DNA from: Bacillota bacterium
Lineage (GTDB): Bacteria; Bacillota; Clostridia; Saccharofermentanales; DTU023
Length of the DNA: 64,000 nt
Direction: 5' to 3'
Assembly (NCBI GenBank): GCA_023426575.1
Contig: JAFAAL010000030.1
Location: 1,637 to 65,636 of the forward strand
Shown here: one piece after another, positions 1 through 37,822 of the stretch
Numbering within the stretch: position 1 is the stretch's first letter
How the letters are laid out: each line of letters starts with the position of its first letter
Notes under the pieces: generated by a model
Database searches by the model: none
Seen by the model: only the letters and a program-made list of their open reading frames with translations
What the model was told of the DNA's origin: nothing
Translations under genes and position numbers: made by a program

Positions 1-195
1 AAGAATATTCTGGCCTCGGTACAGCACCTCTCCAGCCGTCGGCATGCTGGCTGCCGCGATCATATTGATCAGGGTCGTCTTGCCTGCTCCGTTCGGCCCT
101 AAGAGTCCATAGATGCCACGATCAAAACGATAGTTGAGCTCATGGATGATTTTGTTTTTACCATAAGATTTTTCGAGATGGTTCAGCTCTAACAT
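1..195 (-). CDS. ABC transporter ATP-binding protein, N-terminal 65 codons (gene runs off the left edge)
   Basis: Not in the ORF track. Reverse translation from the ATG at 193-195 gives MLELNHLEKSYGKNKIIHELNYRFDRGIYGLLGPNGAGKTTLINMIAAASMPTAGEVLYRGQNI, with Walker A GPNGAGKT. An AAGGAG RBS overlaps the upstream stop. About 38 of 64 residues are identical by eye to the N-terminus of the island ATPase 40592..41449. Confidence 0.85.
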   Translation of the reverse strand, partial: MLELNHLEKSYGKNKIIHELNYRFDRGIYGLLGPNGAGKTTLINMIAAASMPTAGEVLYRGQNIL

Positions 196-205
196 AATGT
201 GCTCC

Positions 206-1292
206 TTAGATCTCCCATTTTAGAAAAGCTCGGCGGCTCAAGAGGGAATTGACAAAGATGACAAGCAGAGGAATTCCACTCATCTTGATCATATGTAGTA
301 AGTAGCCCTGTCCTGCCAATTGTTCGCTCAGATCCAAGTGATAGATACGATCAAAGGATCCCATGATATTGGTGGGGAAGATCATTGGTCTCAGATCTAC
401 AGCTGCCAGGGTCAGCGGCAGAGCAATCAGGAGGAGGAGCGAGATGAATAGTGCCTGGATATTGTTCTGACTGAGTGTCGAAATCAAGACGAGGAATGAC
501 GTAAGAACCATCATGGCCACGAGCCAGAAAGAAAAGTTTGTCAGTACGACAGTGAAGAGGCTGTGGTCGAATTGATAGATGCCCATCATGGCGACAGAGA
601 GCTTGAGACTCAAATGTGAGAGTTGATAAGAGCGACCGATGATCAGGTAGAAGGAGATCAAATAGATGAGAAAGCCCATGCTCATCGTCATAATGGTGCA
701 GGCACGGATCTTTGAGCGGCTGAGACCCAAGAGACCCATTCTCGTATTTTTGATGATCTTCAATGTTTTGAAGGAGCGCTCGATACTACTGATGGCAAAG
801 CAGAAGGCGATGAGACCCGTGACAACAATATAGGGAATATATGAATTGCTACTTGAAAATTCTGAGAAAAAATCGGACCAGCGCGTGGTCAGATAAAACT
901 GAGGATGATCGAGGAGTTCTTGTCTCTTCTCAATCTCTGCTGTGATCCCCGCAGAGAGCGGTTTCTCTGCCAGCTCTTGAATTTCTCTTTGCAGTCGCTC
1001 TCGTCCATAGACATATTATTCACAGTAGACTCTCTAGTCTCCTCTGACCCTCATCTGGAGACTTATAGTCATAGTCCGAGACGGATTCTTGCAAATTAAC
1101 ACTGTTCTGAAATTGCGCTAAACGTATCGAATCGTAGGGTCCTTCCAGAGCTTTAACCTTTTCTCGAGGGAGCGCGTAATCGAAGACATGGCTAATCTCG
1201 CTTGCGAGAAATAAACAAAGCATCGTGCATAAGATGAGAACTATGAAACCAGGCCTGTTCAAGAAGAGGAGCTTCAACTCTTTACGTGTCAT
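206..1292 (-). pseudogene. ABC-2-like permease, paralog of 41452..42558, split into two reading frames
   Basis: The N-terminal ORF (ATG 1292, GGAGG RBS, MTRKELKLLFLNRPGF...) stops at TGA 1020-1022. The C-terminal frame opens right after TAA 1016-1018 and runs to 206 with no ATG/GTG/TTG until 763. The combined length of ~362 codons matches the 368-aa island paralog. Shared motifs are TTRWSDFF/STRWETFF, IERSFKTLKIIKNTR/VERTMRMKKILSNTR and IFPTNIMG/VFPSNLMA. Confidence 0.6.
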
Positions 1293-1479
1293 AACGCAGC
1301 CTCCAGACTCTCCCGTCTCAATGTCCAGGAGCAAGCATCTCCATGATATATGCTCCCATATGCAAAGTCTAGTGTTTATTTCATTTCAATAGCCTTCGAG
1401 GCAGGAAAATGTCACAGCGGATATCGCCAACTCTCTCCCCTGTGTATAATCAAGGCAAGCATTACAATTTCAGGAGGAG

Positions 1480-2460
1480 ATGATGCAAGGAAAAAGTCTC
1501 AAACACCACGCAGGAGCCTATATCGCCAACTTTAAGACCAAGCGCTTTTGGATCGGTGTCTTCTATCTCTTGGCGGGCAGTGTGCTCTCGGCCTTTGCCC
1601 TCAATATTTTCTTTGTTCCGACAAAGTTTACAATGGGTGGCGTCTCGGGCGCAGCCTCTATCATCTATCAGCTGACGGGACAGGGCGAGTTCTTAAACTT
1701 CGGAACGCTCGTCATCCTCCTGAACATTCCGCTTCTCATCCTCGGCTGGGTGAAGATCGGCTTCTCCTTTGTCTGGCGCTCAATTGTCGGAACTTTTGTC
1801 TATTCGCTGGTCCTCGACCTCCTCCGTCCGCTGACCGAGGGCTGGTTCGACCGCTACTTCAACGTGGCTCTCGAGAGTGGCCACCACCCCGACCCCCTGA
1901 TCTTTGCACTCTTTGGCGGCATTCTCTTCGGCATCTCTATGGGGCTCATTCTCCGCGGCGGCTATACGACGGGCGGCACGGATGTCCTCGCTGTCGTCCT
2001 CCACCGTCGTTGGCCGAATCTTACGATCGGCAATCTCCTAATGGCTCTGGATGTGGTCATCGTGACCTCGACCCTCTTCTTCTATCGTGACGAAGGTAAT
2101 CACGCGATTCTCCTCGCCATGTACTCTTTTATCGCCATGTGGTTTACCGCAAGATTTACCGACATCACGATTTCAGGACTCGACTTCTCCCGCGCGGTCT
2201 ACATCATCTCGGAGCACAAGGAGGAGATCTCAGAGGCCGTCTTTGCCGAGCTCGATCGCTCGGTGACTCTGGTCCCCGCCCGTGGCATGTATACGGGCGC
2301 TGAGCGCGACATGCTCTACTGTGTCGTCTCCTCGCGCCAGGCCCCAAAGCTCAAGGCGATTGTCAAGGAGATCGACCCCCGTGCCTTCATCGTCGTCCAC
2401 GACGTCAGCGAGGTCGTGGGGGAGGGCTTCGAGCGCAGTGGCGCCGACTTCCTGGCCTAG
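1480..2460 (+). CDS. YitT-family membrane protein (DUF161 repeats plus C-terminal DUF2179-like domain)
   Basis: 326-aa ORF preceded by an AGGAGGAG RBS. Multiple TM helices and the GGYTTGGTDVLA motif typical of YitT/YpjC-type proteins. Soluble C-terminal domain. Confidence 0.75.
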   Translation: MMQGKSLKHHAGAYIANFKTKRFWIGVFYLLAGSVLSAFALNIFFVPTKFTMGGVSGAASIIYQLTGQGEFLNFGTLVILLNIPLLILGWVKIGFSFVWRSIVGTFVYSLVLDLLRPLTEGWFDRYFNVALESGHHPDPLIFALFGGILFGISMGLILRGGYTTGGTDVLAVVLHRRWPNLTIGNLLMALDVVIVTSTLFFYRDEGNHAILLAMYSFIAMWFTARFTDITISGLDFSRAVYIISEHKEEISEAVFAELDRSVTLVPARGMYTGAERDMLYCVVSSRQAPKLKAIVKEIDPRAFIVVHDVSEVVGEGFERSGADFLA

Positions 2461-36136: not shown

Positions 36137-37822
36137 TTGGCAGAATGGAGACATACGCTGAAACTCTTGCTTAATTACATCTTATCACGTTATAAGCGCG
36201 ATCTTTTTATTCGCTCTTTACTGTCAATCATCATTGGCCTAAGTTCTGCTGCACTCGTATATAGTAATAAGTTGCTTTTCGATCACATCGGACGACCTAT
36301 TGTAGCTAAAAAACTATTCTATGATGTATCCATTTTTTGTGTGATACAAGTATCCGCAATACTTATTCAGTCTGTGAATAATAGAGTTAACGACTTGGGC
36401 GCAAGCAAAATAAAAAGTGATTTAGAACAAGTCTTATATCAAAAGCAGCTCAGCCTCTCACTTGAAACACTGGAAACACCTGATACACATACCTCTATCA
36501 TGTTAGCTAGAAACTATGGCATAGATGCAGTATTTTCAACCATAAATAATCTCCTATCTTTATTGAATAGCCTTATTGGCATAACATCTATTCTGTATAT
36601 TTCCATTAGCATAACAACTTCAATGTTATCGGTTATTCTCATAATACCTATTCTTTCATTATATTTGAACACTGTTGTGGATAGGAAACTGGATAAAAAT
36701 CGTGAGACTACGGCTAAACTTAAAAGAGAGCAATCATATATCAATTCTCTGGCCTTGAGTCCACAAAATAGTAGAGAGATAAAAAGTTATCTAGCCGAAG
36801 CTTTCTTCATTAATAAGCTGAGGGCTGTATTATCAAATATATTCGAAAATGAGCGCGAGCAATTTTTAACCCAAGAAAAAATGAGAATTACTCTGGCACT
36901 CTTGGAATTTATAGCTGAATTATACATAATTATGGTAGCAGTAGTACAATCCGTCTCTGATGATATGCCCTTTGGAACAATTACCATGTTTATTGCTGCC
37001 ACTCAAAGCATTAGGGCACATATTAATAGCATCTTCGTCAATTTAAGGGATATAAATCAAAACAGACTGTTCAGTAGATATTTCTTTGATCTTTTACAAC
37101 TTAATTCAGAGCAAGAAACAGGTTCACTATGCCCGCACATCCATTCTATAACGATTGATAATTTAAGTTTTACATACCCAGGAACGACCAAGAAAGTAAT
37201 AAAGAATGTAAATCTAGAACTATTTAGTGGTGACAGAATACTTCTGATCGGACCCAATGGAGTCGGAAAAAGTACTTTAGTTAAACTTTTGGCTGGACTT
37301 TACCATACATACGAGGGCTCAATAAAAATAAACGGTATAGATCTCAGAGATATCTCTATCGAGAGTTACAGAAAGAAAGTCTCTGTGTTCTTCCAGGATT
37401 ATACTAATTTTGATTTAAGCATAGAGGAAAACACATATTTTGACAGTCACATTTCAGAAGCTCAAATGAATAAGATGCGCAACTTACATGCTGAGCTTGA
37501 TCTGCAAAGAAAAATTAAAGAAAAAAACATTAAACACGGCACCCGTTTGGGGTACTGGGATGGAAGCATTGTTTTTTCTGGAGGAGAAGCTCAACGAATA
37601 GCTATAGCACGCTGTTTAGCAAAACAGGCAGACTTTTATATTTTTGATGAGATCACCTCAGCGCAGGACTCAATATCGAGGCGGAATCTCTTTAGATCAG
37701 TTTTAGTTCCTGCAGATGACATAAGGATTATGATAACCCACAATCAAGAGTTAGCATCTAAATACGCGACAAAAGTTTTTAGAATAAAAAATGGTGAGAT
37801 CTTTCCAGATTCTACACCATGA
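36137..37822 (+). CDS. ABC exporter, fused 6-TM domain plus ATPase (no C39 peptidase domain)
   Basis: 561 aa. TMD first (LFIRSLLSIIIGLSSAALVY...), then GPNGVGKSTLVKLLAG, FSGGEAQRIAIARCL and FYIFDE. TTG start; the first in-frame ATG is ~120 codons in. Convergent with the radical SAM operon. Confidence 0.8.
   Translation: MAEWRHTLKLLLNYILSRYKRDLFIRSLLSIIIGLSSAALVYSNKLLFDHIGRPIVAKKLFYDVSIFCVIQVSAILIQSVNNRVNDLGASKIKSDLEQVLYQKQLSLSLETLETPDTHTSIMLARNYGIDAVFSTINNLLSLLNSLIGITSILYISISITTSMLSVILIIPILSLYLNTVVDRKLDKNRETTAKLKREQSYINSLALSPQNSREIKSYLAEAFFINKLRAVLSNIFENEREQFLTQEKMRITLALLEFIAELYIIMVAVVQSVSDDMPFGTITMFIAATQSIRAHINSIFVNLRDINQNRLFSRYFFDLLQLNSEQETGSLCPHIHSITIDNLSFTYPGTTKKVIKNVNLELFSGDRILLIGPNGVGKSTLVKLLAGLYHTYEGSIKINGIDLRDISIESYRKKVSVFFQDYTNFDLSIEENTYFDSHISEAQMNKMRNLHAELDLQRKIKEKNIKHGTRLGYWDGSIVFSGGEAQRIAIARCLAKQADFYIFDEITSAQDSISRRNLFRSVLVPADDIRIMITHNQELASKYATKVFRIKNGEIFPDSTP

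Follow-up and report, generated by a model that had tools for sequence, protein, structure and literature searches.

A broken ABC transporter module at the window edge, related to the transporter of a RumC-like island and probably a former immunity module

The window considered here is a stretch of 64,000 nucleotides from a Bacillota bacterium of the Clostridia (assembly GCA_023426575.1, contig JAFAAL010000030.1, positions 1,637 to 65,636 of the forward strand). On the minus strand at its left edge lie a broken gene for a membrane protein, termed permease 1, and the first codons of a gene for an ATP-binding cassette (ABC) ATPase (Table 1). Both have counterparts in a low-GC sactipeptide island at 36-43 kb of the window. 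This island encodes a precursor with six Cys, permease 1, an ATPase, a RumMC-like radical S-adenosylmethionine (rSAM) maturase and permease 2, together with a fused ABC exporter (36137-37822) on the strand opposite to the other island genes. The edge segment (1-1292) represents the first 1.3 kb of a module of ~2.5 kb consisting of membrane protein 1, the ATPase and membrane protein 2. The preferred reading, held with a probability of roughly 80%, is that this module is a decayed, maturase-less relative of the three-gene ABC-2 transporter of the island, and probably a former orphan immunity module.

Table 1. Features of the edge module and of the island genes used as comparators (window coordinates; HMM, hidden Markov model; RBS, ribosome-binding site)
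Feature	Position	Strand	Remarks
Edge ABC ATPase, first 65 codons	1..195	-	start ATG 195-193; gene runs off the left window end; from translation
AAGGAG RBS of edge ATPase	203..208	-	overlaps membrane-gene TAA 208-206; read from sequence
Permease-1 pseudogene, distal part	206..1015	-	frame B, 269 codons + stop; HMM positions 87-365, 147.6 bits
Lesion 2	1016..1018	-	in-frame TAA nonsense codon; variable x of motif L-x-R-x-Y-x-E-x-Y
Permease-1 pseudogene, proximal part	1020..1292	-	frame A, 90 codons (MTRKELKLLF...ESLL); TGA 1022-1020; HMM positions 2-86, 29.1 bits
Lesion 1	1030..1035	-	(AG)3 run within CTAGAGAGTC; probable 2-nt (AG) deletion, frameshift; from profile frame switch
GGAGG RBS	1300..1304	-	7 nt upstream of ATG 1292; read from sequence
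Promoter-like site TAGACT, 17 nt, TATCAT	1343..1371	-	consensus match only; 3 sites vs 2.2 expected, not significant
Island permease 2, comparator, 371 aa	37904..39019	-	edge homologue L001 2931-3476 outside the window, truncated
Island ABC ATPase, comparator, 291 aa	40592..41467	-	contains P0022
Island permease 1, intact comparator, 368 aa	41452..42558	-	identical to P0001
Probable island precursor, 68 aa	42567-42773	-	MKILKPIATNENNEPQGLIWTCRCICNTNSAYSGTRNKSTVTFGTCFCSCFEGNFDNKDANLGLARKK; AAGGAGG 7 nt upstream

The edge genes and the break in permease 1

The permease-1 gene of the edge is read in two frames. The proximal part, in frame A, holds the first transmembrane segment (TM1) and the first portion of an outside loop, and the distal part, in frame B, holds the rest of that loop and TM2-TM6 as predicted from hydropathy. 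An earlier, sequence-only reading of this DNA had placed the start of the gene at TTG 1334. The start is moved here to ATG 1292-1290, which follows the GGAGG site and agrees with the N-terminus of the family, MxKE(L/F)xLLF, and with the 90-aa gene called for the proximal part in two other assemblies (contigs L001 and L002). Frame B offers TTG 763 and ATG 739 as its first possible starts, and gene callers on other assemblies give the distal frame only as a 177-aa product from ATG 739. This product, which is on public record, led to contigs L001, L002 and L003 and later to L008-L010, all of them 99.6-100% identical to the window over an overlap of 0.35-2.2 kb.

At the break, the minus strand reads ...GAG AGT CTA CTG TGA ATA ATA TGT... 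Frame A ends in TGA 1022-1020, and frame B (GAA TAA TAT GTC...) carries a TAA at 1018-1016, after which it is open to TAA 208-206. The sequence-only reading had described this arrangement at 1016-1022, a TGA followed by a TAA in the +1 frame that no single-base change can repair, and reading both frames confirms it. The position of the frame change is indicated by a profile of seven intact relatives (P0001, P0003-P0008), from which the edge copy was left out and against which the three minus-strand frames were searched. In frame A the match extends to model position 86 (codon GAG 1034-1032), and it is taken up again in frame B at model position 87 (codon AGA 1033-1031), still upstream of the TGA. 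As the two boundary codons share 2 nt while the model continues across the frames, the event is best described as a 2-nt deletion that turned (AG)4 into (AG)3. The last three residues of frame A, together with the TGA, are out-of-frame read-on past this first lesion, and the TGA is a mere chance stop of the shifted frame.

With the frame restored, the sequence ...RRLE-RVYCE-[TAA]-YVYG... reproduces the family motif L-x-R-x-Y-x-E-x-Y. At the place of the TAA the relatives carry S, V, E, K or R, and the stop can be reached by one change from AAA, GAA, CAA or TAT/TAC. The edge permease gene thus carries two independent inactivating changes, the loss of 2 nt from the AG run and a separate TAA. The lesion region reads CTAGAGAGTC...TGAATAATATG, and CTAGAGAGAGTC is the form expected of an intact ancestor. 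Scored against the permease-1 family profile, the 2-nt deletion with the TAA restored to a sense codon gives 200.5 bits (E 7e-63), a 1-nt insertion 191.3 bits, and the deletion of 7 nt (GAATAAT) suggested by the sequence-only reading 186.3 bits. The repaired protein matches the family at full length, its two fragments covering complementary parts of the model. The gene as it stands has no single open reading frame (ORF) that runs from start to stop across all TM segments.

The break is found outside this contig too. A stretch of 41 nt around the lesions is identical, base for base, in L001, L002, L003 and L008, which derive from MEGAHIT-style, scaffold, Logan and SPAdes-style assemblies. L002 represents a strain variant, with nine single-nucleotide differences from the window in 6452 nt, all of them outside the lesion stretch. 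Because four other assemblies, one from a strain variant, agree in this stretch, an assembly error is very unlikely.

The membrane gene is followed by the ATPase gene, whose start lies ten bases after the stop TAA 208-206; this layout, in which the ribosome-binding site overlaps the stop, suggests translational coupling. Window positions 195..1 translate to 65 residues, MLELNHLEKSYGKNKIIHELNYRFDRGIYGLLGPNGAGKTTLINMIAAASMPTAGEVLYRGQNIL, which include the Walker A motif GPNGAGKT and match Pfam ABC_tran with 42.8 bits (cut-off 25, E 1e-10). In the near-identical contigs the ATPase can be followed to its end (L001:2040-2894), where it measures 284 aa, its ORF appears intact, and the signature SGGMKRR, the Walker B motif LILDEP and the H-loop STH are present. 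The curated models that match it best are GldA (205 bits, cut-off 402.6), DrrA (183, cut-off 312), NodI and the lantibiotic-protection model TIGR03740 (160.6, cut-off 309.75), each below its cut-off, and ABCA-type and NosF domains are its best relatives in the PDB. On these matches, the ATPase can be assigned to the ABC-2 (type V) class but to no named NCBIfam subfamily among those tested.

Kinship with the island and continuation left of the window

The edge genes are specific homologues of the island pair and stand in the same order, permease and then ATPase. The ATPase fragment is identical to the island ATPase at 38 of 64 positions (59%, E 6e-25), exactly the figure that had been estimated by eye from the letters, and the full-length protein is 58% identical over 279 aa. 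The joined edge permease aligns end to end and colinearly with island permease 1 (26% identity, E 5e-20), in line with the likeness proposed earlier, and gives no alignment with island permease 2. Both membrane proteins have the same predicted topology: TM1, a loop of ~120 residues, and five more segments, six in all.

The relatives of the edge ATPase consist of a small group at 51-59% identity, above a broad plateau of ABC-2 ATPases at 45-49%. In a search of 5.8 billion protein clusters the island ATPase came out in about sixth place, and in a neighbour-joining tree, which lacks bootstrap support, the edge and island ATPases fall into one subclade with P0018 and P0019. The permease-1 family is much rarer. 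A HMMER profile built from the two copies and run against 1.84 billion representative proteins returned 16 at E<=1e-3, two of which are the copies in the window itself, where no further copy of the permease-1 module exists. Six further matches (E values from 3e-25 to 3e-11) each represent one intact protein of 333-373 aa, and the seven homologues of the lesion profile are likewise all single proteins, six of them of 357-373 aa and one of 333 aa. A word-indexed protein search returned nothing for the joined edge permease and only P0006 for the family alignment. Scans of GTDB genomes and JGI metagenomes with the permease fragment detected no relative, and a PDB sequence search with the permease profile gave no match. 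Island permease 1, like its edge counterpart, matches no Pfam or NCBIfam model. PF12679 (ABC2_membrane_2) is matched by one of eight aligned permease-1 relatives (3.3e-11), and the permease-1 homologue of L015 carries a precomputed hit to the same domain.

The edge module had been taken for a second copy of the island module. It is a specific homologue of the island genes but not a duplicate, as the proportion of synonymous differences (pS) between edge and island genes is 0.80-0.90 and synonymous sites are saturated. The formal alignments that had been proposed uphold the homology, and the same saturation makes a dN/dS ratio not computable. Since pS is saturated and codon composition differs, the two modules are better regarded as old relatives acquired separately than as products of duplication within this genome.

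To the left of position 1 the module can be read for a further 4.4 kb in the near-identical contigs. A membrane-protein ORF of 181 aa (L001 2931-3476) begins 36 nt after the stop of the ATPase; its homology to island permease 2 covers the N-terminal half of the latter (E 2e-5). The ORF matches more strongly residues ~34-188 of the intact permease 2 of L004, L012, L016, L018 and L015 with E values from 1e-12 to 1e-16. In related loci, the intact permease 2 after the ATPase measures 385-405 aa. The edge gene is reduced to the first 181 of about 370-405 codons, with TM1, the loop and TM2 only. L001 holds no trace of the C-terminal half. An ORF of 236 aa (L001 4124-4834) was considered as that half and rejected, with an E value of 0.045 to the island protein and no match to L004 or L012.

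An antisense ORF of 86 aa (L001 3367-3627, minus strand) abuts the point at which the permease 2 homologue is cut. The idea that it is the remnant of an insertion sequence was dropped, because its HTH_23 match is weak (E 0.0045) and tblastn against plasmids gave nothing. Further left, at L001 3826-6367 (1.6-4.1 kb left of position 1), lies a second decayed ABC system of bacteriocin type. The ATPase of this system, a member of the lactococcin-972 group (TIGR03608, 184 bits, cut-off 255), is frameshifted near the C-terminus into ORFs of 448 and 83 aa; the membrane ORFs beside it, of 67 and 236 aa, are split too. A core gene for an HhH-GPD protein begins after this system at L001 6368. A YitT-family gene on one side and this HhH-GPD repair gene on the other enclose the 5.5 kb, of 35-51% GC, in which the edge module lies.

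The sequence-only reading had expected an rSAM gene and a second permease just beyond the window edge. The second permease was found, as the truncated homologue described above; the maturase was not. In contigs of the L001 type, the ATPase, the 36-nt gap and the truncated permease 2 follow each other with no rSAM remnant among them. Gene calls on L001 contain no Radical_SAM domain, and tblastn with the rSAM enzyme, peptide and exporter of the island against the 6.7-kb L001 returned only a generic ATPase-domain match. On the other side of the module, no minus-strand ORF of at least 20 aa exists in 1293-1479 and tblastn with the island precursor finds nothing, which bears out the earlier remark that no peptide gene is visible upstream. 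By the usual test for a sactipeptide or other rSAM-dependent ribosomally synthesised and post-translationally modified peptide (RiPP) cluster, the edge locus, including L001, does not qualify, having neither a precursor gene nor an rSAM/SPASM maturase.

Related loci and the probable role of the module

The three transporter genes are found in several other loci in different company. In the island, the probable precursor has six Cys in a CxCxC...CxCxC pattern and is 47-48% identical to peptides encoded beside related modules (L012 6633-6860, L018 2219-2425). L018 carries a 68-aa Cys-rich precursor, an ATPase, an rSAM/SPASM enzyme, permease 1, permease 2, a C39-like peptidase and a fused exporter (623 aa), beside a two-component system; its precursor and rSAM enzyme are 48% and 45% identical to those of the island. 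In L020 an ATPase gene is followed directly by an rSAM gene. L012 has the precursor and the three transporter genes intact, with the rSAM gene reduced to a remnant of 65 aa, and L015 has the three transporter genes intact, with rSAM remnants of 52 and 119 aa. No maturase accompanies the three transporter genes in L004, in L021 or in L016, where a two-component system is also present.

The rSAM remnants lie between the ATPase and permease genes, at L012 8874-9071 and L015 4816-5393. That of L012 is 55% identical over 33 aa to the N-terminus of the island rSAM protein, and the 119-aa ORF of L015 matches residues 97-150 and 270-296 of it. In L011 (6390-6860) there is a chimeric ORF of 156 aa, in which the first 103 residues of a module ATPase are fused in frame to the last 54 of a precursor. 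The precursor part is 100% identical to residues 22-75 of the L012 peptide, and a deletion has here joined a second upstream module to a precursor gene. P0018 and P0019, the closest outside relatives of the edge ATPase, both come from sample SRR24915820 (L020 and L021). The former is followed by an rSAM gene, and the latter stands between the C-terminus of a permease 1 and the N-terminus of a permease 2-like protein, with no rSAM gene. The two loci, which need not come from one genome, repeat the pairing of a cluster with an rSAM-less module seen in the window.

The remnants beside intact transporter genes in L012 and L015 indicate repeated losses of the maturase with retention of the pump. 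The trio occurs inside RumC-like clusters (L018) and without production genes elsewhere, and thus forms a unit that also persists or travels alone. It is proposed to be a self-protection pump because the clusters possess a separate fused exporter (in the island and in L018) and because the trio repeatedly outlasts the maturase; genomic context thus makes bacteriocin immunity its most likely role. For the edge module, the original task would most likely have been self-protection against a RumC-like sactipeptide, by expelling the peptide from the membrane or the cell, the mode of action ascribed to ABC transporters that act as bacteriocin immunity genes. It may have been kept as an orphan immunity module without production genes, obtained independently of the island from another or an earlier donor, and would have lost its use and now be eroding. 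As read from the window and the near-identical contigs, it has no maturase, precursor or island-type exporter, and two of its three parts are damaged. Because an ABC-2 type transporter needs its membrane subunits and both are broken, the module would be unable to pump.

RumC from Ruminococcus gnavus E1 is the natural point of comparison. Its cluster contains rumC1-5, rumMc1/2, a peptidase, an exporter and predicted immunity genes, and its precursors carry four Cys, compared with the six found here. The island maturase is closest to the RumMC family (NF035951, 434.7 bits) but remains below the cut-off of 720, and the edge locus differs further in having neither maturase nor precursor and in being broken. 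In the published RumC cluster, immunity and export are predicted for different genes (PMC6760926, PMC6779426), and the Cys-rich precursor, rSAM/SPASM enzyme, ABC genes, peptidase and two-component system of L018 correspond to the layout given there.

Other known systems share single traits with the module. LanFEG transporters likewise combine one ABC-2-class ATPase with two non-identical membrane proteins, and the edge ATPase matches the corresponding model TIGR03740; the role in producer immunity would also be shared. They differ in that the ATPase misses the model cut-off and the membrane proteins match no LanE, LanG or other curated model, are longer (~360-400 aa, with the ~120-aa loop after TM1) and are encoded in the order permease, ATPase, permease. 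ABC transporters are frequent bacteriocin immunity determinants and can occur as orphans without a bacteriocin gene (PMC10598978). One such case is Mr10EFGH of enterococci, an ABC transporter of a bacteriocin cluster that moves as a module of its own without the structural gene (PMC10598978). Comparable here are L004, L016, L021 and the edge, all without a maturase (the absence of an upstream precursor was checked for L004 and the edge), together with L012 and L015, which show maturase loss in progress. The protein families and the bacteriocin class are nevertheless unrelated, and the edge copy is pseudogenised. ABC-2 or type V exporters such as DrrAB, NatAB, NosDFY and ABCA-like proteins provide the closest curated or solved relatives of the ATPase, and the PF12679 match of a family member and the six-TM prediction point in the same direction. 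All their subfamily cut-offs are missed, however, and the membrane proteins are too diverged for a direct assignment.

Several points weigh against the preferred reading. The continuation to the left is read from contigs that are 99.6-100% identical to the window over an overlap of 1.1-2.2 kb, and not from the window's own contig; an NCBI contig of 74,932 nt in the protein database carries both ATPases. The edge permease has no Pfam or NCBIfam match, so that the ABC-2 assignment of the membrane genes is transitive, and an AlphaFold2 model of permease 1 built from three sequences reaches a mean pLDDT of only 44.5 and is unusable for the fold. No intact allele of the edge permease was found in protein searches, GTDB or JGI metagenomes. 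The supporting assemblies may stem from related samples of one host population, so the break may not be fixed throughout the species. As regards function, the trio could equally export the peptide, immunity being a matter of context, and the edge ATPase is intact, so the module may not be wholly dead.

Among the alternatives, an intact membrane gene, with the TGAATAA cluster produced by an error of assembly or sequencing, is very improbable. Such a reading could appeal to the non-trivial repair that is needed, to the position of the region at the edge of a metagenome-derived window and to the low coverage of one supporting contig (L008, cov 4.35). It would nevertheless have to account for the same letters in four other assemblies, which come from different assemblers and include L002 with its nine differences elsewhere, for two separate lesions, and for the damage to the adjoining permease 2 homologue and to the ABC system after it. 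An explanation by a single 7-nt insertion, with a second complete cluster including an rSAM gene left of the window, has slightly more in its favour and is still very improbable. Deleting GAATAAT does restore one frame, the arithmetic being right, the joined protein aligns with island permease 1, and P0018, the outside ATPase nearest to that of the edge, has an rSAM gene directly behind it. The profile, on the other hand, changes frame 10-12 nt upstream of the TGA and in doing so recovers the family motif, the 7-nt model scores 14 bits lower than the 2-nt model, and the near-identical contigs contain a truncated permease 2 but no trace of an rSAM or peptide gene. Least credible of all is the notion that edge and island are unrelated loci sharing only a generic ABC-family likeness. 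Walker motifs are common to ABC ATPases and the window contains only 65 residues of this one, but the identity of the full ATPase exceeds the plateau of the class, both membrane genes are homologous and in matching order, and the permease family has just 16 detectable members.

Two further alternatives concede the break and question the loss of function. The split could be functional, by programmed frameshifting or read-through, or by assembly of a 90-aa polypeptide (TM1 and loop) and one of 177-185 aa (TM3-TM6) with the ATPase. The loop hit by the lesion is indeed variable and extracytoplasmic, the ATPase, whose ribosome-binding site is coupled, is intact, and the break is conserved in two strain variants. 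A shift from frame A to frame B would, however, meet the TAA within five codons, so that both frameshifting and read-through of the TAA would be required; translation from within frame B could begin only at 763 or 739, with loss of part of the loop and TM2; and the homologues of the profile are all single proteins, while the partner permease 2 is truncated as well. This, too, is a very small possibility. Somewhat less remote, though still unlikely, is a partly live relic in which the ATPase has been kept to energise other membrane subunits, for instance the island permeases, or for another role. It is a 284-codon ORF with all motifs, standing between two broken genes and 58% identical to the island ATPase. 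With only about three lesions in the entire module, though, an untouched gene of 855 nt is expected by chance, the island has an ATPase of its own, and dS is saturated against every relative.

The annotation of the edge is corrected to two lesions instead of one 7-nt insertion and to no hidden second maturase. Taken alone, the edge feature is an ordinary pseudogene relic that changes little; more is to be gained from the rare permease families and from the repeated maturase losses around them. A trio that moves and survives independently of the maturase shows the pattern expected of an immunity module, and L004, L012, L015, L016 and L018 provide a concrete set of loci bearing on that idea. The edge module also draws attention to two very rare families of membrane proteins, linked to a precursor that has six Cys and resembles a sactipeptide. 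Orphan immunity bears on the resistance of gut bacteria to bacteriocins, which would be relevant if RumC-like peptides became antibiotics. A more tentative extension, which is doubtful at present, would see the trio as the dedicated immunity pump of a new family of six-Cys (CxCxC...CxCxC) RumC-like sactipeptides that repeatedly outlives the production genes. Genomes would then tend to carry a producer cluster and an rSAM-less module together, the edge relic would testify to an earlier encounter with a second peptide variant, and its ATPase might serve the island permeases.

Composition and right flank

The base composition of the edge is intermediate, as had been noted from sampled lines. Region 1-1479 has 44-48% GC and a GC content at third codon positions (GC3) of 0.50-0.58, compared with 35-39% and 0.29-0.39 for the island genes and 57-60% and 0.66-0.75 for the core genes. 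Upstream of the permease, a divergent spacer of 187 nt is common to the edge module and the YitT-family gene (1480-2460, plus strand), and an Rfam scan of 1-2000 returned nothing.

An exact look-up of the YitT protein gave no record. A GTDB scan with it returned two metagenome-assembled genomes labelled "Eubacteriales bacterium" (L006 and L007), whose YitT is 87% identical. The L007 contig ends 150 nt upstream of YitT, and in L006, which has 47.6% GC vs about 57% here, TrkA/TrkH genes take the place of the edge module next to YitT. No true empty site can be defined from these two, the nearest GTDB genomes, as they are too distant. The product of the adjacent ispE is only 41-42% identical in L006 and L007, an uneven divergence compared with the 87% of YitT.

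Of the nine differences that separate L002 from the window, eight are crowded into 67 nt of the YitT gene (window 1908-1974; L002 41-107), mostly at spacings of 3 or 6 nt. Such a pattern would fit a small patch of recombination or successive changes at third codon positions.

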